NCBI GenBank assembly: GCA_965601925.1
Contig: OZ271854.1
Location: 3,712,001 to 3,776,000 of the forward strand
Length of the DNA: 64,000 bases
DNA from: Alkalispirochaeta sp.
GTDB lineage: Bacteria > Spirochaetota > Spirochaetia > DSM-27196 > Alkalispirochaetaceae
Direction of reading: 5' to 3'
Part shown: positions 16,364-46,222 of the stretch, one piece after another
Layout: each line of letters starts with the position of its first letter
Position numbering within the stretch: position 1 is the first letter of the stretch
Program-made: the position numbers and the translations under genes
The notes under the pieces: generated by a model
The model's input: the letters and a program-made list of their open reading frames with translations, nothing else
What the model was told of the DNA's origin: nothing
Database searches by the model: none

Positions 16364-16373
16364 AGGAGGGTAC

Positions 16374-26603: not shown

Positions 26604-26718
26604 AACATAACGCTGGACCAGTCAATCTGCTTTGTCACGACTTCTGCGTACGCAAAAGTCGCGCCAATCCCTCCGCTGCGCTCCGGGCCGCATCTTGCAG
26701 GTCAGCTCGGTGTTAGAC
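26604..26718 (+). repeat. Integron attC site 2 (original R'' GCATAAC at 24935-24941 displaced by the IS)
   Basis: Near-identical to attC1; R' GTTAGAC at 26712. Confidence 0.85.
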
Positions 26719-26776
26719 ATACATACCCAAAGCTAAGGCCTCAACACGAGGCTATGATGAATGGATCGGAGTGTAA

Positions 26777-27390
26777 TCATCCCACCTTTAGAGCAGGCGA
26801 TTTCTTAGCCCTTTGCCTGAGGTGAGCTGCACGGTAGTCCAGCGGAGTTTGCCTACCGAGCGCTCGATGGGGACGCTCCCCATTGTACTGAGAGATCCAC
26901 CGCTGAGTCAGGGTTCGGACCTCATCCAACGTTGCAAACAGGTATGCATCGAGAACTTCCTCCCGATAGGTGCGGTTGAACCGCTCTACGCAGGAGTTCT
27001 GGGTAGGTTTACCGGGTTTGATGAACTCCAAACGGATGCGGTGATGTTCTGACCAGTCGGCCATTGCCACGCTGACAAACTCAGGTCCGTTGTCGACACG
27101 GATCTGCCGCGGACAACCGTGTCGTGCTACCAAGCGGTCGAGAACACGAACCACGCGCGGCGCCGGGAGACCGAAATCGACCGCGATGGCCAGCGCTTCC
27201 CGATTGAAGTCGTCGATTACATTCAGCGTTCGGAATCGCCTGCCGTCGGACAGCACATCGCTCATGAAGTCCATTGACCATGACCGATTCGGTGCTGCGG
27301 GAGCCGCCAGAGGCTGTGGATACCGAGACGGCAGTCGCTTCTTACCCTTGCGGCGCAGGTTGAGGTTCAACTGCGTATAGATGCGATGAA
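26777..27390 (-). pseudogene. IS3 orfB C-terminal part (rve/DDE)
   Basis: WSMDF, DNGPEF, PGKP.QN..VERFN. Confidence 0.9.
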
Positions 27391-28470
27391 GGTACATTCC
27401 AGGGACATCGTTTACAAAACTCTAAGGACATCCTTTACACTCGCACCGGCCTACAGTGGACTCCGGAGGAGTCTATGCCATGGAGGCAGATGTCAGTAAT
27501 GGAACAAAAAGAGGAGTTTATCCTGCTGTTCAAGAGCGGGAAGTACACGGTGAGTACCCTGGCACAGATGTTCGAAATCTCACGTCCCACCGCCTATAAG
27601 TACATCCATCGGTATCAGGATTTCGGCGTACCGGGGCTGCTGGAGTTGGGACGAGCACCCCACCGGGTGCCGAATAAAACGCCTGATCGGATCGAACAGG
27701 AGATCATTAGACTGAGAACCCGTCACCCCCGCTGGGGCGCACCGAAACTCCGGGTCCTCCTGGAAGACCGCTTCCCCGGTATCGCGCTCCCAGGTGTCTC
27801 GACCATTAGTGCCATTCTGAAACGGAACGGTATGGTCGCGGAACGGAAGCGGCGCAAGCGAGTAGAACCACGGTGTCCTATCTTCGATCCTCTGGTGCCG
27901 AATGAAGTATGGAGCGCCGATTTCAAGGGGAAGTTCAGGATGGGCAACAAGATATACTGCTATCCGTTGACCATCGCAGACTCCTGTAGTCGCTATGTCT
28001 TTGCTGCCAAAGGCATGCATGCAGCCACGACCAAGAACACCAAGAGTGTATTCATCGATGTGTTCAGGAAATACGGGGTACCGCTTCAGATTCATACCGA
28101 TAACGGCGCCCCGTTTGCCCATATGAATGCCCTCGGTCGCCTGTCTAAGCTTGCAACATGGTTCATGGAACTCGGTATCAAACCGGTCTACTCCGATCCC
28201 TCCCACCCCGAACAGAATGGCCGGCATGAACGGATGCACCGGGAGTTGAAGGCCGAAGCGACGAAACCACCGGGGTATTCGCTCCAGCCCCAGCAGTGCA
28301 AACTCAATCGCTTCGTGAAGGAATACAATGAACTCAGGCCCCATGCCGCGTTGGATATGAGAACACCGACATCGGTCCACCAACGATCAGATCGACCGTA
28401 TCCCGAGACGGCAGTCGCTTCTTACCCTTGCGGCGCAGGTTGAGGTTCAACTGCGTATAGATGCGATGAA
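27323..28470 (+). repeat. 68-bp exact direct repeat (27323-27390, 28403-28470) flanking the IS481 fragment
   Basis: ccgagacggcagtcgc...gatgcgatgaa occurs twice. Confidence 0.92.
27475..28443 (+). pseudogene. IS481-family transposase, 3'-truncated at ~28402
   Basis: MPW start, HPRWGAPKL, WSADFKG, DNGAPF, PEQNGRHER; last residues read IS3 sequence. Confidence 0.88.
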
Positions 28471-28727
28471 CCCGCTTGTGATTCCACCGGTAGCCATCTC
28501 GACGCAGCGAATCAAACATCAGGCGAAATCCCCAGCGAGGATGCTCTTCGGCCAGCCTCTGTAGCGCTTCGATTACCGGACGGTCCTTCTGAGTGTCCGG
28601 CTGGTAGGCATAGCTGGTACGACTCACATCGACGATACGACATCCTCGAAGGATGCTCGCTTGGCATTCGTCTCTGAGGTAGTCCACCAACGTGCGCTTC
28701 TCGGCCGGCCTTAGAGCTTTTTTTCAA
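28403..28727 (-). pseudogene. IS3 orfB N-terminal part
   Basis: HPRWGFR, NHKRVHRIY. Confidence 0.85.
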
Positions 28728-28977
28728 CGATGTCCTTCAACAGCTCGTAATCCAGACTCAGCTCGGCATACATGTGCTTCAGGCGACGATTCTCGTCTTC
28801 GAGTTCTTTCAGGCGCTTTACCTGGCTAACTTCCATCCCACCGTATTTCGATCGCCAATTGTAGAACGTGGCATCACTCATACCGTGTTCGCGACAAGCG
28901 TCTTTGACCGACTTCCCGGCTTCGACTTCCCTCAGAATCCTGATGATCTGCGTTTCGCTAAACCGCGATTTCCGCAT
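28711..28977 (-). CDS. IS3 orfA
   Basis: RFSETQII, CREHGMS.ATFYNW, RLKELE.EN.RLK. Confidence 0.93.
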   Translation of the reverse strand: MRKSRFSETQIIRILREVEAGKSVKDACREHGMSDATFYNWRSKYGGMEVSQVKRLKELEDENRRLKHMYAELSLDYELLKDIVEKKL

Positions 28978-29889: not shown

Positions 29890-29937
29890 TGGGCGATACT
29901 GGATTTGAACCAGTGACTTCTACCGTGTGAAGGTAGC
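29890..29937 (-). other. 3' half of tRNA-Val(CAC): attachment-site duplication
   Basis: Minus strand CTACC-TTCACAC-GGTAG anticodon arm, GGTTCAAATCC T-arm, ATCGCCCA acceptor side; no D-arm or 5' acceptor. Confidence 0.85.
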
Positions 29938-30310
29938 AGTCAGGAAAACGCCTGCGTATCTCCAGCGATCAATAACGATCATAAGTATATACCATACAGT
30001 GAGTTGTAGCAATCATGAGCGATCAGTTTGTATCAGCATGTATCAGGCCATATTCAAAAAACAGGTCACAAATTGGGTCACAGTTTTTTGGGGGTGGGGA
30101 GGGACGTTGTCTGCCGATCCGATACAGCCTTTGCCCGGCGCCATGAACGCCGTTGTTCTGTTAGCTCGACTGTAGGTCCAACCAACATCAATGTCGCTTG
30201 CCTGCTCATTCGCGTCTGCCTCGAGGACATTGCCATAGACTCTCAGTAAAGAACATAACATAATTAGTAATGTTACAATCAGCTTTTTAACCAAAAACCC
30301 AAAAAAAAGA

Positions 30311-30339
30311 TTGCAAGATGGGTTAATAATGAATATGAT
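30311..30339 (+). promoter_or_regulatory. Sigma70-type promoter of the RiPP operon
   Basis: TTGCAA-17-TATGAT with upstream A-tracts. Confidence 0.7.
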
Positions 30340-30370
30340 GTAACTAAATCATATTGTGAGGAGGCTAGAG

Positions 30371-30583
30371 ATGAGTAAAGCTAATATCTCTATTCATACG
30401 ATCAAAAACCCCTTGATCGGATCGCAATCAGTGGCTTACGAGGCACCAAAGCTCGCGAGGCTCGACCTCGCCAAGTTTTGCACTGTACTCACGGCATGTG
30501 GTTCCGGACTTCTGACCAACAGGGAGGTCGGGGGTAACTCATGTGACCGCGGAGGGAGCTCCACGGATTCGATCCGTCCGTAG
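30371..30583 (+). CDS. RiPP precursor peptide (70 aa)
   Basis: GAGGAGG RBS; YEAPKL (YxxPxL) leader motif; Gly/Ser/Cys-rich C-terminus; precedes RRE gene. Confidence 0.8.
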   Translation: MSKANISIHTIKNPLIGSQSVAYEAPKLARLDLAKFCTVLTACGSGLLTNREVGGNSCDRGGSSTDSIRP

Positions 30584-30590
30584 TCTGCTC

Positions 30591-30624
30591 AGATGGGTGG
30601 GCTTCAAACGCCTGCCCATCTTTG
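30591..30624 (+). terminator. Stem-loop after the precursor
   Basis: AGATGGGTGGGC / GCCTGCCCATCT 12-bp stem (2 G-U) with short T tail. Confidence 0.65.
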
Positions 30625-30651
30625 TTCGTCTCTTTACCCCGAGGTAAAACA

Positions 30652-30945
30652 ATGCGATACGAGTTTAACTCCCGAGATTACATTGTTCGGCAACTGCTGA
30701 ACGAACAGGTGATCGTGCCTTTAAGTGGCGAGCTTTTAGAGATGGATCAGATGTTGGTCCTCAACGCGACTGCCGCTGCTGTTATCTCGGCTACACAGTC
30801 TGAAACGGAGATTTGCACCTTTGAGCGCATTGTCGAACTGCTGCGCAACGTGCACGAGAACGTCGACAAGAGGCAAGTGCAAAGTGATGCCAAAAAGTTC
30901 ATAGATGAGTGCGTAGCTAATGGAATCATCCTTGAACACACCTGA
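30652..30945 (+). CDS. PqqD-family RiPP recognition element (RRE)
   Basis: VIVP, LNATA, D...FI.E....GII pattern; 97 aa. Confidence 0.85.
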   Translation: MRYEFNSRDYIVRQLLNEQVIVPLSGELLEMDQMLVLNATAAAVISATQSETEICTFERIVELLRNVHENVDKRQVQSDAKKFIDECVANGIILEHT

Positions 30946-32014
30946 CGTCGCGGTAGAGACGGCTGGCGAAGTCGACTCCGACTTCATACGGTTTGTGATA
31001 CGTAACATTGAGGGACGGCAAAGTACGCTTCATTTGTTGGTAGAGATCACGCGCCGTTGCAACTTTCACTGTCTTCACTGCAACGTCGTTCAGCGCCCTG
31101 AAACCGTCACGCTCCCGGAGGCGTCAAAGGATAAGCTTCTATCTCAGATCAGCCGGTATGAGGATCAGGCAGTATTTTTGACTTTGACCGGCGGCGAACC
31201 GCTGATACGCGCGGATTTCAACGAGATCTGGGGCTCCTTGTGGGATCGCAAGCGTTTTGTGATGGGTTTGTCGACAAACTTGTCCGCTTTGGATACTTCC
31301 GCGTTGGAGTTGCTCGAGGCTAAGCCACCTCATACCATCGACGTGACATTGTACTCGTGGTCAAACAAGGTTTTTGAACAAATTTCGGGAAACGATCGGT
31401 ACGACTACCGCACAGTGTATCGAAACATCGACCGAGTCCGCGCGAGGGTCCGTACCAACGTTCGCGCTCGGATCCCAATCATGAAGCAGAACATTCACGA
31501 GGTCCGCACGATCAAGCAGTACTGCATGGAGCACAGGATCCCGTTCTCGTTTCTCTGGGTTTACTATCCGCCAAACTCAACCATGCCGCTTAAACACTTT
31601 CTACCGCCCAAACGACAGATGTTGCGAATGGTTAGTGAGTTAGTGTACGGCAAAATGAAAATTACCGACGCAGTCGATACGGAACTCAAGGCAATCGCAG
31701 CCACGGATCTGCGGCAACACTCGTGTGCCAAGAATCATCAAGTTTGCATCAACCCGGCTGCGGCCTCTTATCGATGTATGCTTTCGCCGGATGGACTAAC
31801 GCCTAGGACGGAAAGCCATCAATCGCGTCGGCGCGCCAAGGGCGGGACCGGAAGGCGGTGGGGCGACACAACGCGATGTCGAAGTTGCGCGGCCAGGGTC
31901 TTATGCTCGCTTTGCGACATCAAGTTTCGTGCGCTTCCCAGTAGCACGCTGCGTTACTATTGTTGGATATTTAAGCGTTTGTACAGCGCAAACCGGTCCC
32001 GTGCTCATGGCTAA
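30920..32014 (+). CDS. Radical SAM/SPASM maturase 1
   Basis: CNFHCLHC, TGGEP, C-terminal CRSC.....CSLC. Confidence 0.9.
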   Translation: MESSLNTPDVAVETAGEVDSDFIRFVIRNIEGRQSTLHLLVEITRRCNFHCLHCNVVQRPETVTLPEASKDKLLSQISRYEDQAVFLTLTGGEPLIRADFNEIWGSLWDRKRFVMGLSTNLSALDTSALELLEAKPPHTIDVTLYSWSNKVFEQISGNDRYDYRTVYRNIDRVRARVRTNVRARIPIMKQNIHEVRTIKQYCMEHRIPFSFLWVYYPPNSTMPLKHFLPPKRQMLRMVSELVYGKMKITDAVDTELKAIAATDLRQHSCAKNHQVCINPAAASYRCMLSPDGLTPRTESHQSRRRAKGGTGRRWGDTTRCRSCAARVLCSLCDIKFRALPSSTLRYYCWIFKRLYSANRSRAHG

Positions 32015-33044
32015 CAGGACCTTGCTATGGGCTCGCTTTGCTCTGACCCCGTTTTGCAACTTTCAATGCGAACACTGCTATGTTGGCGCGCGGTTCCCAA
32101 ATGCGACGGGGCGGCGGCAACTCAGCACGGTTGAAGTTGAAAGTGTATTGACTCAACTGTCAAAGACGAGCTGTTTGTTTGTTTCCATCACCGGCGGCGA
32201 GCCTTTGCTTCATCCGGATTTCGAACGCATCTGGAGGCACGCTTTTCGGTCGGGTCTTCGCCTTAACCTATTTACTAACGGCTCGTTGATCGATGATTCA
32301 CATTTCTCGTTATTTAAGGAGTGTCCGCCTCATTCGATTCAGGTATCTCTATACGGGCATAGCGACGAGGCCTATCGGTTCTTCACGCGTTGTCGGGGAA
32401 TGTCGGAACGCGTGTTGAATGCCATAGAAAGTCTATGCGCCGGCGGATTTTCGGTCACCGCTAGGTTCGTGGCTTCTAATATCACCGCGAAAGAAGCAAA
32501 AGCGTCGCGGAACCATTTTTCCAGACTCCCGGGCGTTCGCTGGCTTCCACATCCAGTTCTGGATCCGTGTATGAGTGGCTGCGGCACTGATCCAAAGAAG
32601 ATCCGGGTAGGTCTGGATGAATCCATTGAGATGCTGTTGGACGACCCCGATGCTCGACAGCAGCTATTGAACGACTATGACAGCCGTTCGCTGCCGAGAA
32701 GCACGGAGTGGTACCATTGCTCCGCGGCCGATTTCTCCGTCGCTATCGATCCATTCGGCGGCTACAGCTTCTGCGATTACTCGATAGGTGACTTGGGTCT
32801 CAATATTCGCGACGTAGATCTGTCGACCGGGTTCAACTCGATCATTCCTGACTGGATCGCGCGCGAGAACGCACGTAATCGAAAACCATCACAGTGTATG
32901 GGTTGTGCCGCACGGGTGTTTTGTAAGAACTGCCCGCAAACTGCCAAGCTTGAATCCGGCCGCGACGGCGTAAATGACTATTACCATCAGTTCGCTTGTG
33001 CTCTTTACGATAGGCTTCGGGCACTGGACACGGCGAATGGCTGA
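32007..33044 (+). CDS. Radical SAM/SPASM maturase 2
   Basis: CNFQCEHC, TGGEPLL, FTNG, C......IDP.G....C, CMGC.....CKNCP. Confidence 0.92.
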   Translation: MANRTLLWARFALTPFCNFQCEHCYVGARFPNATGRRQLSTVEVESVLTQLSKTSCLFVSITGGEPLLHPDFERIWRHAFRSGLRLNLFTNGSLIDDSHFSLFKECPPHSIQVSLYGHSDEAYRFFTRCRGMSERVLNAIESLCAGGFSVTARFVASNITAKEAKASRNHFSRLPGVRWLPHPVLDPCMSGCGTDPKKIRVGLDESIEMLLDDPDARQQLLNDYDSRSLPRSTEWYHCSAADFSVAIDPFGGYSFCDYSIGDLGLNIRDVDLSTGFNSIIPDWIARENARNRKPSQCMGCAARVFCKNCPQTAKLESGRDGVNDYYHQFACALYDRLRALDTANG

Positions 33045-34002
33045 AGGTCAGTGGAAGCTACGGGCACTGCTGCCCGAACCCGAGCCTTCCCTTCGTGCAA
33101 TACTCCAAAGGCGCCCAGAGCGCGTTGTCGTGTTTTCGACAACACAGCGGTTCCGATGGGCGATTCACGACGGAAGCCGCTGGCGAGAGACGAGCTTCTA
33201 CCGCCATAATGACGAGTTGCGTGGCGTGTTGCACCACACGCGGATCGAGGAAGATAAGTGCTCCTGGTGCCTTTTTGAAGGTGTTGTTGGGCCGCAGGTT
33301 CCGGCAGCAGCAGGCCGATGGAGTTCAAATGCGGTCGATTTTATGTCGACCACCACCACGGCCGCCTGGGCAACGTTGGGAAGCGAGCCGGTAAATCTTA
33401 AGCGTCTTCACTTTCGCACGGCCGATCGGATCGGCGGAGCGGTTGGAACGATCCCTCGCGCACTGTCCGACTACTCCAACTTGCGTTTTGTAATCACGAA
33501 CGGAACTACGCACGAGGAGTTTGTAACATCGTCGCTCACGCCGGTCTCGGATCAATGGTTCGCAGACCGTTTGACACCTGATCTGTTCGTCTCGTTATGC
33601 GACTGGAATCTCATGCGACCCAATGAGTTGTCCAGCGATACGATCTGCAGAATCGGCCGCCTCGGGCGAGCGATGAGTGTTGGTGCCGAGTTCGAGTACA
33701 TTGATTGCTTACCTGCCCGTTCGGTGATCCGTGCGTTCTCAAAACACGAGATCTGGGAGTGGTCCGGATCAGATCGATTCGGGCTTGGAACGAGGTGTTG
33801 GATCGCCCTCCGCGAACCCGACTTGATCGCGAGTGTGACACCCGAGCTGCTGGCTGCTGGTGCCCTCACGCCAATCGGCAGTGTGGCGAGATTGTTGGAC
33901 GCGTTGTGCGGTTCGGACGAGTTCCCGGTTGGATTTACGTTAGGCGGTACGGTTGGAGTGATCTTCAGTTTCGATACCATCTTTTCTAGAGATGCGGGGT
34001 GA
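33037..34002 (+). CDS. Unknown protein in RiPP operon
   Basis: Overlaps both neighbours; no motif recognised. Confidence 0.65.
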   Translation: MAEGQWKLRALLPEPEPSLRAILQRRPERVVVFSTTQRFRWAIHDGSRWRETSFYRHNDELRGVLHHTRIEEDKCSWCLFEGVVGPQVPAAAGRWSSNAVDFMSTTTTAAWATLGSEPVNLKRLHFRTADRIGGAVGTIPRALSDYSNLRFVITNGTTHEEFVTSSLTPVSDQWFADRLTPDLFVSLCDWNLMRPNELSSDTICRIGRLGRAMSVGAEFEYIDCLPARSVIRAFSKHEIWEWSGSDRFGLGTRCWIALREPDLIASVTPELLAAGALTPIGSVARLLDALCGSDEFPVGFTLGGTVGVIFSFDTIFSRDAG

Positions 34003-34372
34003 AGACATGAACACGGCGGTCGCCAACTATGAGGAACGTGGGATACGCGAGTACGCGAAGTTACTGCATCAGTGTATTTCTGACTTCGGGCGCGTTCGCA
34101 TGATCGCGTTCGGCAACAGCATGAAGCCGACGATAAGCAATCGTGACATACTCATCATTGAGTCTTGTAAGTTTGATTTTTTGAAAGTTAATGATATAGT
34201 GTTTTTTGTTCAAGCTAATTATAATATTCACAAAATACATAGAATTATACACAAGTATCAAGATTTCTTAATTGCAAAGGGCGACAACTGTGTACAAGAA
34301 GACATTCCAGTTCGACCCAACGAGATCGTTGGTCTTGTTGTCAAGACATACTCGGCAGGGACAAAGACGTGA
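33992..34372 (+). CDS. Soluble S24/S26 (signal peptidase I-like) peptidase
   Basis: GNSMKP, DIV, IHRII, KGDN; no TM; start may be 34007. Confidence 0.85.
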   Translation: MRGEDMNTAVANYEERGIREYAKLLHQCISDFGRVRMIAFGNSMKPTISNRDILIIESCKFDFLKVNDIVFFVQANYNIHKIHRIIHKYQDFLIAKGDNCVQEDIPVRPNEIVGLVVKTYSAGTKT

Positions 34373-35520
34373 TCTTCGCAAGAATTGTCAATCACGCGGA
34401 AGCTCTACCCTTATGGCTTGCGCGTATGCGAAGAAACGATCCGTGCACCGTAATTCACGTTGACAAGCACTCTGACATGAGAGACCCGCTCAGCGAGGGA
34501 ATAAACTGCGGTACTTTTCTGCTAGCTGCGTTGCTCTCCGATCTGCCCATCCGCAAGGTTTGCTGGCTGTACCAGCCGGGCTTCATTCACGAGACATCGC
34601 TTGCCGTTTCGCGCGACGCACAGGACAGGTTCTGCAAACGGCTTTCGTCTCAGTTCGGAGGTGTCTCAGTTTCCACCGCTGGTGAAGCAACAGTGTTTGT
34701 GTTCGGTGGCAAGAAGATCGTCATCTTGCCGGTTTGGCACTTCAGCAGTGTTATGCGTGACGCGGCGTCCGACCCACAAGTCATAGTCGATATAGATTTG
34801 GACACTTTTGTGCGGAGTAACGGCGATCTCATACCAGAGATTGCCGGGCGTTCGCTTCAAGACGTAGTCGATGTCTGTGCTGCGAATCGCGATCAACTCG
34901 ATATTGTAACCCTCTGTACTTCTTCCGACTCTGGTTACTTCCCTTCATACTTTTCGTTTGTATCGGACTATGTGGAGAATGGCATTAAGAACACGACTGA
35001 CGCCCCACCCGGAGATCTTCGGCAAGTCGACTGGGAGTACCGGGCGGTCTCCAACACTGCGTCCGCAGAAGATCTCAGTGACGCGTTATCGCGGGCAGCA
35101 ACGCCACTATCCCACTGCGGGACTCTTATCAAGATCGAGCTTTCGCAATGGCTTCGACACGAGTCAGCACCTATTGAACCTGCGACGCGGCTCTTGGTCC
35201 AAGAACTGCCGCTGGGGTTGCGTCGGACAATGGGCTTTGGGTTTTTTCACGATCGAGAGGGGGGCACGCGGCTTGCCCTTCGAGCAGTCGTTAACAGCCT
35301 CTCAGTGGATCCCAACAACCCTTTCTTGATCCACAAGGCTGCCCAGCTTGCCAATGCGTTACTAGCACAGTTTAAGCAAACACAGTGTCGCGAAGGCACG
35401 AAATACAGTTTGGACGACTTTATTCATGATGGCTGGCAGGAAGACCCAGGGCTTTGGCAGTGGTACTTCGATGAGCTGTTGCAACAAGCCGCAATTGCGG
35501 GGGGACGAAATGCGGGCTGA
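34369..35520 (+). CDS. UPF0489/arginase-fold protein (putative peptide arginase)
   Basis: NHAEAL..W, IHVDKHSD, INCGTF, VDIDLDTF, S.GY. Confidence 0.72.
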   Translation: MIFARIVNHAEALPLWLARMRRNDPCTVIHVDKHSDMRDPLSEGINCGTFLLAALLSDLPIRKVCWLYQPGFIHETSLAVSRDAQDRFCKRLSSQFGGVSVSTAGEATVFVFGGKKIVILPVWHFSSVMRDAASDPQVIVDIDLDTFVRSNGDLIPEIAGRSLQDVVDVCAANRDQLDIVTLCTSSDSGYFPSYFSFVSDYVENGIKNTTDAPPGDLRQVDWEYRAVSNTASAEDLSDALSRAATPLSHCGTLIKIELSQWLRHESAPIEPATRLLVQELPLGLRRTMGFGFFHDREGGTRLALRAVVNSLSVDPNNPFLIHKAAQLANALLAQFKQTQCREGTKYSLDDFIHDGWQEDPGLWQWYFDELLQQAAIAGGRNAG

Positions 35521-37216
35521 TCTAAATGGAGTCCAAGGTGAAAGGCTGTTCTCACTCCTTGAGTTCATACGGAATGCAAAGTCTTTGCGGCTTTTCCTAA
35601 CGGTTAGCCTACAGTTTATGTTTCTTATCGGGGTTTCCGTCGCAGCGTCGATGGTATTCGACTATGCATTTGTGCATGCCAACCGCTCGATGTTACTCCG
35701 CGCCTGCGCTCTCACGCTTGTCTTGTACTTTTGCTATGCTGTTGCGGACTATTTCTACAACCGGGTTGCGTTAACGGCAATCCATGAGTCTTTTGCGTCG
35801 ATCCTGCGGTCGCGTCTGTTGAGCGGCTTCATTAACGCGCCTTCATCGGCCTTTCATCAAATGTCCAGTGCCGAGGTGTCGAAATCGCTGACTACCGAAG
35901 TCAACCAGTACGCCGACTCTGTTCATCTGGTGGTTTCAAGCGCTGGCCAAGCGGTGCCGTTGGTTCTTGGCTTGGTTTACCTGTTGACTATTGCTCCGGT
36001 CTTAACCGTAGCGTATGTAGTAATCGGTCTCTTGCCGATAGTGATTATCGGTTTGTTGGCGAACAAGGAAGCAGAGTTGTCTTCACACCAGATTAAAGAG
36101 TATCGCCAACTCGCCGGTTTCTTGGAAGACGCAGTCGCTGGGTACACGGATATTCATGGTTTGAACCAGGTCGACAGTTTCGTTCGTACATTTGGAACTA
36201 CGAGCCGCAGGTTCGTTGTTCGTCGATTTCTTCGAAAGCAGAACATTGGTTCGGCCATCAACGCAGTTGGCTCGTTTTTCACTCGGATCGTCCCGTTGGT
36301 TGTTGCGGTCTGCTGGGCCCACCTGGAACTGTCAGACGTACAACCGGCGGACCTGGTAGCTTTTGTTTCTCTAACAATGTTGATGCCCTCGCTTACCGTA
36401 CTGGCGATATTGCGTCAGTCGCTTGTACGCTACCGCGTTCACGCAACGCACATCAAAGCTCGTCTAAAACTAGATCGCGAACTCTTCGGCAGTGTGGTAC
36501 CGACAACCGGTTCGGTCGAGTTCGCGGATGTTACGATTCGATCTCGCAACTCGACCATTGTTGCGGGCGTGTCGCTCTCAATTGAGGAGGGTGAAAAAGT
36601 TGCGATCTGCGGCCCGACGGGAGTTGGCAAAAGCCTCTTGCTGAACTGCCTGTACGATCCGGTCAGCGTTGAAGCCGGCGAAGTCCTGCTTGGCGGCGTC
36701 GATGCCAACGACGTCGATTGGAGTCAATTTCGCCGTCTTATCGCGTACGCCAATGACTCGCCGTTGATCCTCGACAGAACCGCGCTTGCCAATCTGTGCT
36801 TGGGCGTCGACATGCCGGCTTCTGAAGTGATCGCACGCATCACATCGATGAACCTCGGTGATGTAACTCGCACGATAATCGATGACGAGCATCAGATCGG
36901 ACAAGACATGCTCTCCACCGGAGAACGGCAAGCTCTCGGAATCTGCAGGGCGCTGCTGCGCAGATCGAAGTTGCTTTTGCTCGACGAAGCAACCGCCGCA
37001 CTGTCCTCCGATCTAGAACATGCACTCATGCATGAGGTACACAAATCTAACTCAACTGTCCTCTGTATCTCACACCGGATTGAAACAATTAGATCAATGG
37101 AAAGGCTCGTGTTGATTGTGGATGGTGGGATCGCGTTCGATGGTGACATGTCCCGCGCTCAAACGGTTCCCGTGGTCAACGAGTTTCTCAACGGAAACCA
37201 GGTGGTGAAATCGTGA
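35510..37216 (+). CDS. ABC exporter, fused permease-ATPase
   Basis: TM domain; GPTGVGKS, LSTGE, LLLDE, SHR. Confidence 0.9.
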   Translation: MRADLNGVQGERLFSLLEFIRNAKSLRLFLTVSLQFMFLIGVSVAASMVFDYAFVHANRSMLLRACALTLVLYFCYAVADYFYNRVALTAIHESFASILRSRLLSGFINAPSSAFHQMSSAEVSKSLTTEVNQYADSVHLVVSSAGQAVPLVLGLVYLLTIAPVLTVAYVVIGLLPIVIIGLLANKEAELSSHQIKEYRQLAGFLEDAVAGYTDIHGLNQVDSFVRTFGTTSRRFVVRRFLRKQNIGSAINAVGSFFTRIVPLVVAVCWAHLELSDVQPADLVAFVSLTMLMPSLTVLAILRQSLVRYRVHATHIKARLKLDRELFGSVVPTTGSVEFADVTIRSRNSTIVAGVSLSIEEGEKVAICGPTGVGKSLLLNCLYDPVSVEAGEVLLGGVDANDVDWSQFRRLIAYANDSPLILDRTALANLCLGVDMPASEVIARITSMNLGDVTRTIIDDEHQIGQDMLSTGERQALGICRALLRRSKLLLLDEATAALSSDLEHALMHEVHKSNSTVLCISHRIETIRSMERLVLIVDGGIAFDGDMSRAQTVPVVNEFLNGNQVVKS

Positions 37217-38907
37217 ACCTGCTTGCGAATACCTTTGGGTTGTACCGAAGCTACTACGTGAAGGATCGTGTGTGGCATGCGCTGTTTTTGGTCTTGATCG
37301 CTGTACGTGCGGCGGCCCTCTATGTCGTTAGTCGGTTGCTATGGGCAGGTACCGACACGCTGACTGATTTAGCGGTCGTTGCCGGCGCGATCGGATGCTA
37401 CTCGGTTTTGTCATTTCTCGGAGACATGGTCGCGTCCAGGTGGCTGATATACATGCCAATGAGTCGCATGATGGAGGCTCGATTCCGGGAAACCATCCGC
37501 ACGGATCACGAACAGTTCATGAACGACGGCCGATTTCGGGCCATATTTGCGACTCTCGAAGAGCCCCAGATGATCATCGAGCACGTTTGGGCCACATTTC
37601 AGTTGATTGGTCATGCCGCGGTTGCGTTGGTGATTACTGTAACGCTGCTGAGAGATTTCCCTTGGGCAACCCTCGCAGTAGCCGCGTTTGCGATAGCCTT
37701 TGAAGCGATGATCTTGCGGCGGACTCGGCAAGGCGAGCGCAAGTGGAGTGAGCTGTCCAGGCGATTTGAGTATTATCAGTCTCGTATCGTCGCTCGAATG
37801 CGAGCGATCCAGTCGATCAAAATCATGGGGTTGTCTCAAGCAGTCACCTCGGAGATTGAAAACGATGCCGGCGCATACACCCAGAGCGTCTCCAGAGCCA
37901 AAGGATTCGATGTGGAAATCAGAATTCTGTACGGTGTCAGGGCGTTCTTGGTTCAGATCTTATTCGTGTTACTCGCCGTGCTCTTTCATGCCAACTCGAT
38001 ACTCACGATTTCCATGGCGATAGCCGCTGTTTTTTTCGTCGACGCGTTTCAATCAAGCCTATCTACTGCGCTCGAATCGGCGCTTACATGGAACCGCACG
38101 CGTGGTGTCGTCAGTGAGTTTGTGACCCACTCTGACCAAGATCGTAAGCGAACGATCATCACACCGCGACCGTGGCAATCTGGGATTTCTGACACGTCGG
38201 TGGAGCTTCTGGATGTAACCGTGGTCGGAGGGCGAGATCAGGAACGAAGCCGTGTACTGGTGAAAGGGCTCAGTCTTTCGGCCAAAAATGGCGAGAACAT
38301 TGCGCTTGTAGGCCCGAATGGCGCCGGTAAGTCCACGCTCCTGCGAACCATCTTTGGCCTGTCAAACCCCGAGTGCGGTACGGTCGCGGCTTATGGTTCG
38401 GTCGGCGTCGGCCATTCGGAAAGTGCTAGTTGGGCTCTTTACATTGGCGATTCACCACATGTTTTCAACACCACGCTTGACGAGAATCTCAGGATGGGTC
38501 TCCCGGCCAGCGAGGGCAAAGTCTCCAATGTACTCCTCGGTCTCGAGCTCGGATCGTTAACCGACGGACTGTCTTCAGTTTCGACAGAGCGACTTGACCG
38601 CGATGCAAAAACGATTTCTGCCGGTGAGCGAGCCCGGGTTGGGTTGGGTCGTTGCCTGCTAAGAAGTAGTCGCTGCCGACTGCTGTTTGTCGATGAGACG
38701 TTGAGAAACTTAGACTCGAGAACTCGAATTCACGTACTCGAGTATCTGCTCTCAGCTTTTAGGGAAAGCACCGTGTTTATTGCCACGCATCAGGAAAACG
38801 TGATCGAGCGACTTGACGTCGTTTGGTACCTCGATCCGAATACCAAAGCGGTCGAGATCATGACGCCTGCCCAATATCTGAGCAGGTCGTTGCAAGCCAA
38901 TACTTAG
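37213..38907 (+). CDS. ABC exporter, fused permease-ATPase
   Basis: TM domain; GPNGAGKS, ISAGE, LFVDE, ATH. Confidence 0.9.
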   Translation: MNLLANTFGLYRSYYVKDRVWHALFLVLIAVRAAALYVVSRLLWAGTDTLTDLAVVAGAIGCYSVLSFLGDMVASRWLIYMPMSRMMEARFRETIRTDHEQFMNDGRFRAIFATLEEPQMIIEHVWATFQLIGHAAVALVITVTLLRDFPWATLAVAAFAIAFEAMILRRTRQGERKWSELSRRFEYYQSRIVARMRAIQSIKIMGLSQAVTSEIENDAGAYTQSVSRAKGFDVEIRILYGVRAFLVQILFVLLAVLFHANSILTISMAIAAVFFVDAFQSSLSTALESALTWNRTRGVVSEFVTHSDQDRKRTIITPRPWQSGISDTSVELLDVTVVGGRDQERSRVLVKGLSLSAKNGENIALVGPNGAGKSTLLRTIFGLSNPECGTVAAYGSVGVGHSESASWALYIGDSPHVFNTTLDENLRMGLPASEGKVSNVLLGLELGSLTDGLSSVSTERLDRDAKTISAGERARVGLGRCLLRSSRCRLLFVDETLRNLDSRTRIHVLEYLLSAFRESTVFIATHQENVIERLDVVWYLDPNTKAVEIMTPAQYLSRSLQANT

Positions 38908-39010
38908 TTAGGCGGCCGGAGGCTCGAAGAGCCGAGAAGCTCCGACTGATATCGGTGTTGATGTTCAGTGTGGACATCAATATCACGGACTTTGTTCCGA
39001 GGAGGCTGAC

Positions 39011-40738
39011 ATGTTGATACAAACCAAAGCAGTGAAGGATGCGTCTCCGGCGGATACACTGAGCCGGATACGCAAGGCGTTGTCCATTCTGAACCTCACG
39101 CCAGTGGAGACCAGTAACATGCTCGATCCAGCTGGCACGAGCTATTCCACTCGCATTGAACTGCCCGGTTTCCCGGTTGGCACCAATGGAAAGGGCGTTA
39201 GCCCCGAGCTGGCGCAGGCGAGTGCGTACGCTGAGTTCATGGAGCGGTTACAGAATCTGGCCTTGGCGTTTGCACCGTATATTGCGAACCCCCAAACCAT
39301 TGTGTTTCCGGATCAAGTGTCGTTGGCAATCGATCAGATTCCTGATTGGTGTTGGCAAGCGATCTCCGGAAGCTTAGATGTGAGAAACGAGCTTTTGACG
39401 ACTCCCGATTCCACGCACCGTGCCTGCGCGGTGCCGTACTACGATGTGTTTGGAAACCAGGTCGTGCACCTTCCTTTGGACTTGCTATTCTATGCTTGTG
39501 GTAGCAACGGGATGTGTGCCGGGAACACACCACAGGAGGCAGTACTTCAGGGGATGTGCGAGGTTCTTGAGCGGCACTGCGTGTCACGCGCGTATGAGCA
39601 ACGACTCCAGGTTCCGACGATCCCCCACAACCGCCTTCGCGGGCTCCATTCCTATGACATGATCAGTAAGATTCAGTCCCAAGGAATGGAAGTATTGGTA
39701 AAAGATCTCTCGCTGGGCGGCCGCTATCCGGTTATAGCCACGTATACCTTCGACTCGCGCACAGGTTTGGGTCGGCTGTGCGCAGGGTCGCACCCCTACC
39801 TCGATATTGCATTGCAGCGTTGCATCACCGAGACTTTTCAAGGCTCTGATGCGCCAAGTCAACGCGTCGATTGGGCATTTGAACCAGGCATGTCCCAACT
39901 ACACCTGGCCGAACGAATGAACTTTTTTGTAAATGGCTCTGGGTTTTTCCCTTCGTACCTGGTTCTTGACGACTCAGACGAGGGCCTGCCAGACGGCGCA
40001 TTCTTCGGTGACGCGAACGCAACGAACGCGGAGTTACTATCATGGGTTTCGCGGCGCTTGCAAGCAAGCGGGGCGAGAGTTTTTGTTCGCGACGTGTCGT
40101 TTTTGGGGTTCCCGTCGTACAACGTGTTCATCGATACCATGTCGGTCGTTCAACCCTTGGATACGCCTGGCGCATTTTTGGCATTGAACGGTGCAAGGAT
40201 ACGAGCGTCGATATCCAGGTTGGACGATGCCGACGTCGAGGCACTGTTAAGCGTTCAAAAGGGGCTCCGCCTCATAGCTGATCCTGCGTCAGGCGTTCGG
40301 GCTTTCGAGGATTTTCTTGCTCGGCGAGCAACCGCGGAGCGTCAGCAGACGATCGACTACCATGGACTGTCGGCTTGGACGTCCTTAGCAACCAAGGACT
40401 ATGCGCAGGGGGTTGTCGACCACTCAAGATACATGCAGACATTTGATACCAGCCGCCCGGACTACTTGATGCATCTTGCACTCGGATTGACACTAAAGAT
40501 GCTCGCCGAAGGTGCGTCAGACAAAACGATTCAGAGTTGTTTGCAGCGATACTACGGTGTACCCATCGCATTGTTGTTGTCCAAGTTTACGCGTGAGCCT
40601 CGTGCAGCATTGCGCTCTCTCTTTGTGGATAACCTGCTCCCGTTGGATCCGAAGTGTGAGCAGACGGTCCAGACTATTGTCAGCGCACTGCGCGATAACG
40701 CACTGCAGCAAGAAGACTTAGCAAACATATTCGCATAG
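39011..40738 (+). CDS. YcaO-family ATP-dependent peptide-modifying enzyme
   Basis: NGKG, SAYAEFMER, SNGMCAGN...EA...G..EVLER, RCITE; GAGGAGG RBS. Confidence 0.93.
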   Translation: MLIQTKAVKDASPADTLSRIRKALSILNLTPVETSNMLDPAGTSYSTRIELPGFPVGTNGKGVSPELAQASAYAEFMERLQNLALAFAPYIANPQTIVFPDQVSLAIDQIPDWCWQAISGSLDVRNELLTTPDSTHRACAVPYYDVFGNQVVHLPLDLLFYACGSNGMCAGNTPQEAVLQGMCEVLERHCVSRAYEQRLQVPTIPHNRLRGLHSYDMISKIQSQGMEVLVKDLSLGGRYPVIATYTFDSRTGLGRLCAGSHPYLDIALQRCITETFQGSDAPSQRVDWAFEPGMSQLHLAERMNFFVNGSGFFPSYLVLDDSDEGLPDGAFFGDANATNAELLSWVSRRLQASGARVFVRDVSFLGFPSYNVFIDTMSVVQPLDTPGAFLALNGARIRASISRLDDADVEALLSVQKGLRLIADPASGVRAFEDFLARRATAERQQTIDYHGLSAWTSLATKDYAQGVVDHSRYMQTFDTSRPDYLMHLALGLTLKMLAEGASDKTIQSCLQRYYGVPIALLLSKFTREPRAALRSLFVDNLLPLDPKCEQTVQTIVSALRDNALQQEDLANIFA

Positions 40739-40819
40739 TGTTGTCTCTCGGTTCGGTGAGCATCGGCGAAACGCAATGTACCAAGTGATCGAGGAAATGC
40801 GCGGCTGAAGAGGATAAGT

Positions 40820-41497
40820 ATGAGACCCTCAGACTATGCCGACTACAGCTCAATTTACGACATTGTTGGCGATAGTGCGTTAAATCCGGAAGTATCTTCA
40901 TTCGTGCGGAAACTCGCTGAGTATCTGCCGGCAGGTGCTCGAGTCGCTGATATCGGCGCCGGCACGGGATACTACAGTCGAATGCTGCTATCGCTGCGAG
41001 CCGACATATCCATAACACTCGTCGAGCCGAGTACACACATGATACGCGAGATTGAACGCAATCGTATCCCGCGGATGGATGTGCTGCAGCACACATGGGA
41101 GTCGTTCAGCGACCGCGATTGCCCAGTCTCGGTGATGGTGTTCATGTACTCCCTCTATGCGATCTTTCGCTCTCTTGAGCACTTGTTTGAGTCGTTGCGT
41201 ACCTATCTAAACGAACGAGAGTCCGTCTCTAACATCGCATTCTTCCTCATTGGTGGTCGGAGGGACCTGGCCGCCGCACGAACGAGAGTTGCTTCGGGGC
41301 TTAGGCGTGTCGGATACAGCTCCCAGGAGGTAGCAAAAATCTGGGCTCGTTACGAACGTTTGTTGCTTCTGTTTAATAGGCGCCTTGCTCACGGCGAGTT
41401 TTGCATATTCTCGCCACAAGAAATCACTTCGGTCATGCTACAGCTTGGTTTCAGTCTCTCGTGGATGGATACCCACGGGATGATCTGGTCCCGTTGA
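40820..41497 (+). CDS. Class I SAM-dependent methyltransferase
   Basis: VADIGAGTG, VEPS. Confidence 0.85.
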   Translation: MRPSDYADYSSIYDIVGDSALNPEVSSFVRKLAEYLPAGARVADIGAGTGYYSRMLLSLRADISITLVEPSTHMIREIERNRIPRMDVLQHTWESFSDRDCPVSVMVFMYSLYAIFRSLEHLFESLRTYLNERESVSNIAFFLIGGRRDLAAARTRVASGLRRVGYSSQEVAKIWARYERLLLLFNRRLAHGEFCIFSPQEITSVMLQLGFSLSWMDTHGMIWSR

Positions 41498-41891
41498 CTA
41501 AACCCGTCACGGCCATGTTTTGACCATCTCGAACTTGGCACGTTTTATCGAGCCATCGTCAACGACGGCCTACGATAGTTGTAAGGCAGCCTGGTAATCG
41601 CCGAAGACAACCTGCGGCGGCAAGAGCCAACCTGACGATAGCTGAACTGCATCGTTCAGTTCCACCGCCGAATCATGGGAAAACTTATCTCGGAGCGCAA
41701 CCGCAAAACGGGCGATCAGTGGCGAGATTTCGCAAAATACGGCAACGATCGCATGTAGCAGGCTTTTCGCCTCCCGGTAAGAGGGTGCAGGAGGGAGCCT
41801 GAGTATCTATAGGAGAAACACGAGCGGTTTTGGCACTGTTTGAGCTAAGAAACAGACACACGTTGCCCGAAAAGCGTAACGGAGGAACGTG

Positions 41892-43228
41892 TCAGTTGAG
41901 GCGATCGAGGTCGATCCCAGGTGGTGACCGCCCGATCTTGACCAGATGTTGGAGAATTTTCCTGAGTTCGTCGGGATCCTCGATGATCGCAATAACCTTC
42001 ATCTCAGCGCCGCACTTTGGGCACACCAAGGGGTCAACCTCGTAGACCTTCACGAGAAGTCGTGCCCAGGCGCGTTTGCGCGCGTCGACGGTGACCTCAT
42101 CGGCGTCATCCGACAGCGGTTCGTACCCCAAGTCGTCACTGCCGGCATTGTTTTGATGAGTCGCTTTCCACCCGTCAGGTGCCCGCTCGGTGACCCAAGG
42201 CATCTGTTCCCGTCGCCTCTTCGTGCGCGAGGCATACAGTCCGTATCGTCGGACAAGCTGGAGTCTCCTCGGTGGTATGTGCTGCGTCAACTCAGCTAAA
42301 AAATCCAAGGCGTCGAACAGGTGGACGTTCTGCTTGAAGTACTTCAAGTACGTCGTGTGAAAAAGGACTCGCCCCTTGAACGGTTCGTAGCGGATCTTCT
42401 TCAGCGACAGCGGAGGCCGAGCGGTGTACTCGGCGAGACTTTCCTGGGAGGGGTCGTCGAGGATACGCCCGCTGTTGTCGATGCTGAACCCGGAATGCTT
42501 CCAGGACAGAAGGCTCCGGGCAAAATCTTCATTGAGTAGTTCGCGCTCCAGCAGGAGCTTGATCACCCGACGGCGGAAGACCTCAACCATGGATTGGAGC
42601 CCAGAGAACGGGATGTAAAGAAGGCACCCACTTCATCAAAGCCACCCTCGAGAACGATCGCGTGGAAATGGGGTTTCCACCGCAGCACGTCTCCGAACGT
42701 CTGGGGCGCGACGACTATTCCGGTAAGGAGCTTTCTGCCGGCGGCTTCGTGGTAGAACTCCCGCAGGATGTTGTAGATCATACGAGACACCCCGGCGAAG
42801 AGGCGGCGGTCGCGGCGAAAGAACGGGCGGAGCGCCTTGGGCATCGTGAACACGAGTTGTCGATACGGTAGCCCCAGGAGGACCTCGTTAGTCAGATGCT
42901 CCGCGAAGAGGATCGTTCGCTTCCGGCTGCATGATGGGCAAAGATAGAAACCCTTGCACGAGAATGGCCGGAAATAGTCGTGTCCGCATTCAGGGTTGGT
43001 GCAGCGGATGCGCGCCACGCCCTGGAGATAGTCGCCACACGTGGAGAACCGCTCCCCGACTTGCTGGATGAGCTCAAGGCGGTACATGCCATAGGTGGCG
43101 GCGTACTTCTCATCGTATTGCTCGCGGAAGTCATCGAAATGGCATTCGAAGATGGTATAGAGCTCGTTTCGACCGCGCGGGACGTACCGTTTCGCTCCCG
43201 ATATTGACGAGACAACTGCGGTGCTCAC
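41892..43228 (-). pseudogene. IS91-family (HUH/Y2) transposase, frameshifted near 42617
   Basis: Zn-binding SCK....CPSC, PHFH HUH motif, RRYGLY, CPKCG; split across ORFs 42563..43228 and 41892..42590. Confidence 0.88.
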
Positions 43229-43692
43229 CTGTACTAAGACCAGAAAAAGAACGCGGTTGCTTCAGATGGGGCGCGTATTCATCGAGCGCCACATAACATG
43301 GCGCATGCACCATTCGCCTTCTCGGAGTTTTCGCTCCTGCGAGGGACTGAAGCGACGGTCTCGCGACTGATGCATCCATAGCTAATGCAACGGGCGTTCG
43401 GCTTTGATTCAGAAGGGGGAAAGATGGTTCGGGTTTCATCGGATCAGCCAATAATGGGCTGTAGCAACTTGTAATACGGATTCGCGAAAGCCGGCTGCGA
43501 CAACGAGACGGTTGCTCTGCTGTCTCATTTGTGTATAGCAAACTTCAGAACTGAAACGTAAACCCCATCTTGCGTGGTTACCATGCGTAGAGAGGTTGCC
43601 GAGCGAATATCACGAGGCCATTTCATGCAGACTGGCGGGGGTATCACTGATAGACTTGCCGGTACGTCTCATCGCTTTCGAGGAGAAATCAC

Positions 43693-44478: not shown

Positions 44479-46137
44479 CTACAACAGCCACCGTCCTCCC
44501 CAGGACAGAATCAGCGCGAACAGGACTGCGAATCCCGCCTGTCGTGCGAGGAGTGTGAACGTTGCCTTCCAGCCCGTCTCACGACCGATCGTCATTGCGG
44601 TCACCAGACACGGCAGAAGTACACCGGCCAGGTAAACCGCCGTGAGCGCTTGTGCCGCCGTCAGCGGAAAAGATGTACCGGCATTCGCCGCCAGTAAGAT
44701 GATTCCGTCTTTGCGCACCGAAGCGAGCACTACGGGCAGGGCTGCGTGCGGGGGAAGGTCGAATAGACCCATCACCGGACCCAGAAATCGAACGGCCAAG
44801 TCGAGGGCGCCGACGTGAGCCAATAGCGATGCAACGATACAGATCGCGATAAAGACCGGCATTGCCAGCAACAGGAACTGTCGAACCGTGCCCCGCACTT
44901 CGCGCCACAACGCCGACATCCCGGGCCATTGCATAAACGGTCGGCTGGGTGTCATCAGGATGTTCAGTGGGCTGCGTGCCTGTGCACTCGAGGTAACACG
45001 CAAGTACATGAGCGTCGTGACGAGCAGGTACGCCATGAACAGCCACGTCAGCAATGCGGCCGACCTTCCCGTTGCTGCCGCAGCCGCGGACAAGACGGCA
45101 AGGGTGGCCGGCAGTTGGTAGCTGCATGCCGACCCGAACGCGACGGCGGCAACGGCGGAGCCTCGCGAACAGGCTGAACAGGACCGCGTACCGATCACCG
45201 CCGGCACGTTGCAACCGAACCCCATCATCACGCGGGCCACATCTCGTCCGCTTAGGCCGAAGGGGCGCACGAGCGGATGGAGCGCGACGTTGATTCGCTC
45301 GATCAATCCGCTCGCCTTGTACGCGCCGAGAATCAACGCGAACAGCAGCACCGTGGGGAGCGCCCACACCAGCAGGAACGGTCCCATATTCAGCAGACCG
45401 TAACCGAACTCACCGTGCCGCGCCGTAAGCACGACGCGCAGCCAGCTCGGCCACGTGGTGTTGACGGTGGCGATAATCGATTCGAACCAACGTGCCACGA
45501 TGGGGTGAAGGAGATCGGCAACGGTATTCGCGCCGAAGATCGTCGCCACGAGGGGCAGGACGAGCAGCATAGTCGCCAGAAGCGGGCCGGCAATGCGATG
45601 TTCCAGCCACCCCGGCGTCGGCTCGATCCGCCACGTCGCCCGGGCCGTCAGCGATTCACGACGGAACGTCGACGGGTTGCGTGTCGCGTGGGCGATTCTC
45701 TGACGATCGCGACCGGAAAGCCTACGAGCGTCGAGGGGAATGAAGTCGACGCCCGCCTCCGCCTCGAGGCGTTCGATCGCATCTTGCGGCGCGTCACCCG
45801 GTTGAACCTTGTCCCAGTGCGTGACGACCACAGCGCCTCGTTTGCCGACAACGAGCGGCAACATATCGCGCAAATCCCGGTCCAAGTGTGTCGCTTGGAC
45901 CACCAAGAGGACGACGTCGTGTGCCGCCAGGGCATCCAGGGCCAGTCGCGTCGTCTCCGTGTCGGAGCTGCGGAGAATCCCCGGTGTATCGATGTACTCG
46001 ATGTCACCGGATCGATAGCGTTCGACCACGACGGTCGAGCCGCGGAAGTTCGCCTCACCTGCCGAGCGGCCCGACAAAGATGAAATTAGTTGCGATTTGC
46101 CCACACTCTCCTTGCCGACAACGAGGATGGTGCGCAT
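44479..46137 (-). CDS. FeoB-like GTPase-membrane transporter
   Basis: GKESVGKS, N..GSTV, DTPG, THWD, MGFGCNVPA, PC gate motifs. Confidence 0.85.
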   Translation of the reverse strand: MRTILVVGKESVGKSQLISSLSGRSAGEANFRGSTVVVERYRSGDIEYIDTPGILRSSDTETTRLALDALAAHDVVLLVVQATHLDRDLRDMLPLVVGKRGAVVVTHWDKVQPGDAPQDAIERLEAEAGVDFIPLDARRLSGRDRQRIAHATRNPSTFRRESLTARATWRIEPTPGWLEHRIAGPLLATMLLVLPLVATIFGANTVADLLHPIVARWFESIIATVNTTWPSWLRVVLTARHGEFGYGLLNMGPFLLVWALPTVLLFALILGAYKASGLIERINVALHPLVRPFGLSGRDVARVMMGFGCNVPAVIGTRSCSACSRGSAVAAVAFGSACSYQLPATLAVLSAAAAATGRSAALLTWLFMAYLLVTTLMYLRVTSSAQARSPLNILMTPSRPFMQWPGMSALWREVRGTVRQFLLLAMPVFIAICIVASLLAHVGALDLAVRFLGPVMGLFDLPPHAALPVVLASVRKDGIILLAANAGTSFPLTAAQALTAVYLAGVLLPCLVTAMTIGRETGWKATFTLLARQAGFAVLFALILSWGGRWLL

Positions 46138-46222
46138 TTGCGACGGCGCGAGTGCGGTACGCCTCACGCGCACTCCGAAAAGAGGTGCTTTCCGGTCGTG
46201 ACCTCGGACGGCGGATGCCGCG

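Follow-up and report, generated by a model that had tools for sequence, protein, structure and literature searches.

What kind of peptide is made by a run of eleven genes in the genome of Alkalispirochaeta sp. (Spirochaetota; assembly GCA_965601925.1), and does this gene set define a new class of ribosomally synthesized peptides with post-translational modifications (RiPPs)? The genes, designated here A to K, occupy positions 30371–41497 of a 64,000-nt window of contig OZ271854.1 (contig positions 3,712,001–3,776,000), which is the whole stretch of DNA analysed. We consider it highly likely that the locus is a RiPP cluster, namely a real and intact gene set for a small modified, exported peptide. 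It works like a pathway of the LPP type, based on a RiPP recognition element (RRE) and an S26 peptidase, with added tailoring by radical S-adenosylmethionine (rSAM), arginase and YcaO proteins, and it belongs to no characterised family tested. The initial annotation had proposed a candidate new RiPP class. The RiPP assignment and the lack of a characterised match stood, but a free-standing class did not, since most of its components belong together as one block of an rSAM/RRE/S26 scaffold that is widespread, and the cluster is thus a variant of a larger unstudied family.

All eleven open reading frames (ORFs) called in this region of the window lie on the + strand, as first described, and contain no internal stops. 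Family searches identified a precursor (A), an RRE (B), two rSAM-SPASM proteins (C and D), an orphan protein (E), an S26 peptidase (F), an arginase-like protein (G), two ATP-binding cassette (ABC) proteins (H and I), a YcaO protein (J) and a methyltransferase (K). Every family in the title of the initial annotation was therefore recovered, as were the 70-aa peptide at the first position and the two ABC exporter genes, whereas the orphan gene E had been omitted. In the same searches, none of the eleven genes matched a lasso cyclase, a Lan enzyme, TfuA, an E1 protein or a dehydrogenase, in agreement with the initial annotation. The genes can overlap, with plausible starts, at seven of the ten junctions, in line with their description as mostly overlapping, and are separated at A/B (68 bp), I/J (103 bp) and J/K (81 bp). 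A sigma-70-like promoter candidate (TTGCAA-17-TATGAT, 9/12 matches) is located at 30311–30339 on the + strand, within an AT-rich leader (43% GC). The claim of a single promoter remained unsupported, however, as the region contains six promoter-like sites versus 7.4 ± 2.4 in shuffled sequences, which is chance level. Directly after A there is a 12-bp hairpin with a T-run (30591–30621, + strand), which may serve as an attenuator or an mRNA stabiliser; a 13-bp inverted repeat was read at the matching position of the second cluster described below. A 13.7-kb contig assembled from reads of the same sample covers 29909–43500 with zero differences, and A, B, F, G and J are each single-copy in the genome, all at this locus.

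We then asked where else this gene set occurs. Genome contigs were scanned for YcaO, and of 99 loci the best 80 were kept; only one of these, L001 on a Brachyspira metagenome-assembled genome contig, carries other genes of the set. This locus possesses equivalents of A to J in identical order, with 17–40% identity and a homologous precursor; for example, the YcaO counterpart keeps its place with 30% identity. The L001 genome and the window genome are listed under a single phylum, and the two clusters have very different base composition. The co-occurrence of homologues, set as a test in the initial annotation, was thus found for the first ten genes, which are syntenic. Profiles of the precursor, G and E retrieved two proteins each, and a precursor search of 400 genomes of the phylum gave one true match besides the genome itself. 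With the profile of the second rSAM protein (D), the matches following the two inputs had E-values of 1e-49 or worse (25–34% identity), and no full-length orthologue of this protein was present in 40 relatives. No third member was found in protein, genome or metagenome searches, within their word, candidate and sampling limits. Directly upstream of its precursor, L001 also contains a 104-aa C39-peptidase-like ORF (62–376; FapD model E 6e-6), seemingly truncated, to which nothing in the window corresponds.

Most of the cluster has relatives in a much more widespread gene arrangement. A metagenome scan with the profile of D and an HprK-guided search of 201 genomes from the phylum of a Desulfocapsaceae genome revealed a recurring scaffold, composed of an RRE, one to four rSAMs, an S24/S26 peptidase, an HprK/ScmC-like kinase, a PF14907 nucleoside triphosphate (NTP) transferase, an ABC exporter and small Cys-containing precursors. 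It is present in loci L096, L107 and L111, which we take as Omnitrophota from their Atlas taxa, and in genomes G560, G526, G624, G568, G618 and others, whereas PF12640-like arginases with tetratricopeptide repeats (TPRs) occur in the scaffold loci L107, L111, L185 and L199. The loci L111 (4584–14875), L107 (226–14137) and L096 (6448–16478) each encode three or four rSAMs together with as many as four precursors, which combine one shared leader with divergent cores, and glycosyltransferase genes are interleaved. None of the 34 loci from the metagenome scan has a YcaO gene, nor does any of 14 non-focal loci with RRE, rSAM and S26 genes, some of which are near-copies and many truncated; likewise, the remaining 79 of the best 80 YcaO loci contain neither a scaffold gene nor an arginase. 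A terminal Ser or Thr is present in 27 of 31 non-focal scaffold precursors; of the four exceptions, one is cut by the locus edge and three, all from a single genome, have other C-terminal residues. The HprK profile had no match in the Alkalispirochaeta genome, PF14907 had none in either cluster genome, and the precursors of the two clusters end in Pro and Lys, suggesting that the kinase, the NTP transferase and the terminal Ser/Thr, their likely target, were lost together. The precursor leader, RRE, D, soluble S26 peptidase and arginase-TPR protein derive as a block from the scaffold, relative to which the two clusters gained the YcaO, the orphan E and a second ABC half. As far as the searched literature goes, the scaffold itself is an uncharacterised rSAM-bearing cousin of the LPP pathway.

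The precursor gene A (30371–30583, + strand) has a strong ribosome-binding site (RBS) and encodes the sole such peptide in the genome, matching its L001 homologue at E 6e-8. Its leader carries the motif Y23-E-A-P, and its core, which is rich in Ser, Thr and Cys, holds C43, R51 and C58. The two precursors share 23 invariant columns, including C43-G-S-G-L-L-T49, R51, C58 and G61, whereas their C-termini are dissimilar and the tails past G61 differ in length. P26 and C43 are invariant across 16 scaffold precursors, and the leader register between these residues matches. This register with the scaffold and LPP leaders suggests cleavage after T41 or A42; the predicted core would then have 29 residues (2865 Da before modification) or 28 residues (2794 Da). 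Gene B (30652–30945, + strand) encodes a discrete RRE of the PqqD family (PF05402, 33 bits, over the cut-off; E 7e-8) that can be aligned with the scaffold RREs. A structural model of the A–B complex gives weak support to their interaction, with a score of 0.42 versus 0.02 for the best control, 91% contact agreement between runs and a partner pLDDT (predicted local distance difference test) of 51. In the calibration of these scores, the mark was reached by 51 of 78 solved versus 2 of 108 mismatched pairs, but scores of 0.60 or below comprised just five of the 78 solved pairs and all four passing mismatches. The model may also reflect memory, because similar complexes have already been solved.

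Both rSAM-SPASM proteins, encoded by C (30920–32014) and D (32007–33044) on the + strand, match the Radical_SAM family (E-values for the two genes 4e-17 and 2e-21). Protein C has an intact CX3CX2C motif and seven Cys in the SPASM region (269, 286, 320, 323, 329, 332 and 348), while the Gly of its GX4C motif is lost, likewise in L001. Protein D is of the scaffold type CX2CX5CX2CP, with His replacing the final SPASM Cys in both clusters. In a quick tree of 92 rSAM sequences of 320–520 aa (seven duplicate loci excluded), D falls inside a clade of scaffold rSAMs supported at 98%, and C is paired at 96% with another scaffold rSAM. Their best PDB match is SkfB (1e-14), restricted to the core region.

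The orphan gene E (33037–34002, + strand) encodes a soluble protein of 321 aa and occupies the equivalent position in L001, where its counterpart shows 19% identity (BLASTP E 2e-5). Its profile matched only the two clusters among 1.84 billion representatives; E has no match in Pfam, NCBIfam, PHROGs or Atlas and no transmembrane (TM) segment, and its AlphaFold model has a pLDDT of 29. Its position suggested a dead HprK/ScmC kinase, which gained no support at hhalign probabilities of 0.1 and 0.3 with 5 and 24 sequences. Gene F (33992–34372, + strand) encodes a soluble SipW/LppS-like S26 peptidase (TIGR02228 3e-12, below the cut-off) without a TM helix, in which G41-x-S43-M-x-P, H83-R84 and G97 are invariant in eight homologues and D98 is kept in most. 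It is predicted to be an RRE-dependent leader peptidase. Indeed, LppS with its S29/H68/D93 triad is described as cleaving the LPP leader after a Thr, solely with the RRE (PMC13381572).

Gene G (34369–35520, + strand) encodes a PF12640-like peptide arginase with a helical TPR-like tail. Residues H9, D32, H34, D36, D143 and D145 are invariant in six sequences, and the matching six ligands reportedly bind Mn in OspR (PMC10028609). The residues flanking these ligands are divergent and the Pfam score is under the cut-off; a profile built from five sequences matches OspR (8BRP) at E 1e-19, and 8BRP is also the top Foldseek match of the G model (E 3e-4), which is of low confidence (pLDDT 55). A core Arg is present in all six precursors of three arginase-bearing scaffold loci versus 9 of 25 elsewhere, a comparison that is a hint only, as the loci are few, non-independent and partly truncated. 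The catalytic-domain arginase profile had matches in 8 of 301, 12 of 301 and 0 of 121 genomes of three other phyla, none of them with a YcaO inside the stretch fetched; the full-length profile, with four candidates scored per genome, gave largely TPR noise. Among other arginase-bearing loci, L117 (3301–14119, from a gut metagenome) combines an arginase with a B12-rSAM, an S8/TIGR04066 fusion, an RRE, an rSAM and two ABC halves, and L200 (1067–4280, on a short contig) has two divergently oriented long arginase-like proteins of 604 and 767 aa.

Genes H (35510–37216) and I (37213–38907), both on the + strand, encode two ABC exporter halves, each with a transmembrane and a nucleotide-binding domain and the former without a C39 domain; they probably form a heterodimer. 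Gene J (39011–40738, + strand), preceded by its own strong RBS, encodes a stand-alone YcaO (PF02624, E 8e-49) similar to that of E. coli: it matches 4Q84 over the full length at E 3e-41, versus 1e-8 for TruD/LynD. It lacks the Pro-rich tail that is the rule for azol(in)e-type YcaOs. Its similarity to thioamide YcaOs is weak (TIGR03266 56 bits; 6PE3 1e-15), and both TfuA, for which the control gave a signal, and a cyclodehydratase partner (TIGR03603) are absent from both cluster genomes. Given the similarity to E. coli YcaO and the absence of the tail and of either partner, amidine formation is the likeliest job of J; TfuA-independent thioamide cases exist. A precedent is ItfB, a stand-alone YcaO of a Bacteroides rSAM cluster, which is described as forming a backbone amidine from ammonium (PMC10352776, PMC11002830). 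Relatives of J among the best 80 of 99 loci are about 30% identical, and many belong to Bacteroidota. The relatives of J in L033, L047, L075, L012, L027 and L065 lie in varied rSAM clusters of gut anaerobes, with as many as three rSAMs in tandem, and represent a large unstudied group of stand-alone YcaOs. Every one of these clusters has a separate small precursor of the Cys or GG-leader type. The last gene, K (40820–41497, + strand), encodes a class I SAM methyltransferase (family match E 2e-8). The methyltransferase named by the initial annotation is thus present in the window, but no equivalent lies within 1,040 bp downstream of the YcaO gene in L001, and the L001 genome elsewhere shows just a weak 42-residue match; K is accessory.

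Among characterised pathways, the LPP system of Bacillota (LppA/B/K/S/N/D; PMC13381572) shares, as far as described there, the YxxP leader, a discrete RRE, a soluble SipW-like peptidase with Ser/His/Asp residues, an MsbA-like exporter and the lack of a lasso cyclase. In contrast to LPP, our cluster has no HprK kinase or NTP transferase and adds two rSAM-SPASM proteins, an arginase, a YcaO, the orphan E and a Cys-containing core; the available main text of PMC13381572 nowhere mentions rSAM, YcaO or arginase. By eye, A agrees with the LPP leader consensus YxxPxVLxHQxIxFET only in YxxP and in the Thr before the core. The itf cluster of Bacteroides thetaiotaomicron, also from an anaerobe, shares the stand-alone YcaO, an rSAM-SPASM and an ABC exporter, with ItfB forming the amidine and ItfD a Trp-Ile link (PMC10352776, PMC11002830). 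It differs in a GG leader, a C39-PCAT and a C-terminal Ile-Thr-Phe target, and no discrete RRE, S26 or arginase is reported in the text available. The combination of rSAM and peptide arginase in one RiPP pathway is shared with the enteropeptins (kgr) and the biphenomycin-like pbs pathway, and landornamide OspR has the PF12640 metal motifs of G. However, kgr uses a PF00491 arginase and an Fe-S methyltransferase (PMC12703449), pbs acts on aromatic residues with an MNIO and a B12-rSAM (PMC12257519), and neither has a YcaO or S26 in the accounts compared.

Ranthipeptides and sactipeptides (CteB, PapB, SkfB, AlbA) have in common with our cluster RRE-dependent rSAM-SPASM proteins (CX3CX2C, auxiliary Cys) and a Cys-containing core, but C and D lie outside the characterised thioether families (best 33–53 bits versus cut-offs of 340–850) and the cluster has extra enzymes. 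Unlike azol(in)e RiPPs (LAP/TOMM), it has no E1-like or RRE partner of the YcaO, no Pro-rich tail and no dehydrogenase; unlike thioamitides, it has no TfuA in either of the two genomes; and the macrolactam cyclase and B2 protease of lasso peptides are not among the eleven genes. The SynChlorMet and GeoRSP models are named relatives of the scaffold, but the ScmE (46–53 bits), ScmF (61 bits, cut-off 400 for both) and GeoRSP scores are far below the cut-offs, and ScmC and ScmD gave no match. No published account of the gene set was found in the literature searched, which excludes subscription journals, supplements and MIBiG, and the supplements of PMC13381572 may list rSAM-bearing S26 clusters. 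Within the printed accounts searched, the view that no characterised class has this combination of enzymes is thus supported.

The flanks of the cluster point to its origin. A 52-bp tRNA-Val(CAC) 3' remnant, att-like, lies on the − strand at 29890–29941, 370 bp before the promoter-like site. It is 94% identical to the intact tRNA-Val(CAC) at genome positions 3456233–3456284 and scores 31 bits with the Rfam tRNA model, without an ARAGORN call. Remnant and intact gene share one orientation, but the remnant is found 285 kb upstream of the intact gene rather than downstream, which suggests that the island has been rearranged and that the cluster sits immediately within one end of it. On the left, nested insertion sequence (IS) elements at 25037–28977 include a DDE/DUF772 transposase and what we take to be an IS3-like element interrupted by an IS481-like one; on the right, two ORFs at 41892–43228 (− strand; PF04986, PF14319) encode an IS91-like transposase. 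The cluster has 53% GC versus 60% for the genome, and its GC at third codon positions is near the genome's 5th percentile. The low GC, flanking IS elements and tRNA remnant together indicate a horizontally acquired island. Further upstream, a prophage late region (11381–18651) encodes, as read from translations, a 1660-aa tail-like protein with tandem repeats and amidase-like and spanin-like ORFs. Cargo of low GC comes next, for example a 797-aa AAA-type ATPase (22500–24893). A FeoB-like GTPase/membrane protein, as we presume from its translation, is encoded at 44479–46341 (− strand).

How might these components act together? In the scheme that we favour, with a probability of about 0.55 for its whole chemistry, B would bind the YxxP leader of A and hand the precursor to the enzymes. 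C and D would use C43 and C58 to build radical cross-links, each Cys most likely ending up in one thioether ring, and G would hydrolyse R51 to ornithine (−42 Da). The Arg-derived residue anticipated by the initial annotation would be in keeping with the six metal ligands of G and the conserved R51. Like LppS, F would act in the cytoplasm and remove the leader by a cut after T41 (or A42). J would O-phosphorylate a single amide of the backbone, whose oxygen would then be displaced by a nitrogen nucleophile to give an amidine; this nucleophile could be ammonia, the N-terminus released by leader cleavage or the ornithine formed by G. K might optionally methylate the product, and H/I would export it. 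The YcaO and E would thereby replace the kinase/NTP-transferase module of the scaffold, whose terminal Ser/Thr target is also gone, and this swap suggests that the pathway probably yields a molecule of a new kind. Its most likely role, once exported, is that of an antimicrobial or a signal.

Several points weigh against this scheme. The conserved residues rest on two clusters, and the weight of the whole is limited by this rarity and by a chemistry that is predicted. No characterised rSAM family is near C or D (best NCBIfam about 65 bits versus cut-offs of 230–650), so that the thioether is a default assignment, and both SPASM domains deviate from the usual pattern. By itself, G barely matches arginases (PF00491 0.012; NF052474 6e-5) and does not match OspR, and 18 fetched arginase-like loci have no scaffold gene in view. 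For J, ItfB is a precedent by its published description, and with C-termini that are dissimilar in the two precursors, a target of the ItfB type cannot be seen. Finally, E, with its unexplained role, may carry a defining reaction of the pathway.

These points leave room for other readings, most of which concern the YcaO. It is unlikely that J makes azolines from Cys, Ser or Thr, with E as a divergent partner and the rSAMs, in place of thioether formation, acting on other residues or oxidising the rings as in the SbtM-like thio-oxazole. Such chemistry would suit the S/T/C-rich core and the His in place of the final SPASM Cys of D, and SbtM, an rSAM-SPASM, is described as making a thio-oxazole from Cys (PMC11002830); yet J is much nearer to E. 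coli YcaO than to TruD, LynD or MusD, lacks the tail and the cyclodehydratase partner, and scaffold loci in which no YcaO is seen have the invariant Cys as well. Very unlikely is a role of J in making thioamides independently of TfuA, or in trimming the variable C-terminus as a peptidase driven by ATP: both activities are known for YcaOs (PMC10849128) and the tails past G61 differ in length, but TfuA is absent and the match to thioamide YcaOs is weak.

A quite improbable rival of the favoured scheme would have the arginase and the YcaO act in series, the ornithine amine of R51 attacking a backbone carbonyl activated by J, so that a cyclic amidine would link side chain and backbone; E might be the partner of the YcaO. 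The joint conservation of R51, G, J and E in both clusters and the absence of a TfuA or E1 partner are compatible with this, and there are other RiPPs in which ornithine undergoes additional modification (PMC12703449). However, direct evidence is absent, the arginase-TPR loci L107, L111, L185 and L199 have no YcaO in view and the other 79 YcaO loci all lack an arginase, suggesting that each enzyme works alone elsewhere. It is also unlikely that the cluster represents a new RiPP class in which the stand-alone YcaO joins the arginase-derived ornithine amine to the backbone as a cyclic amidine within a core carrying two radical cross-links, where E would be a YcaO partner, or a modifying enzyme, of a new kind. 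Least probable of all, the locus could be decaying cargo that was formerly functional but has since fallen silent or died in part, J and K being loose passengers. The IS elements on both sides, the tRNA remnant, the GC difference, the gaps before J and K and the failure to find the cluster in 40 relatives would agree with decay, but every frame is intact, catalytic residues are kept and J holds its place in L001 at 30% identity, so that passenger status fits K only.

New in the two known examples is the presence of a YcaO, the orphan E and a second ABC half on the scaffold, whereas the underlying LPP-like RRE/S26 pathway is of an already known kind. The cluster shows a module swap, in which the kinase, the NTP transferase and the terminal Ser target were lost together and a YcaO and an orphan were gained. 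It also offers two natural variants with very different codon bias, and hence two chances at expression. As a compact single-precursor system, it allows one to ask what the widespread rSAM/RRE/S26 scaffold of anaerobes makes, and it bears on the peptide role of E. coli-like stand-alone YcaOs and on whether arginase-TPR proteins are true peptide arginases.

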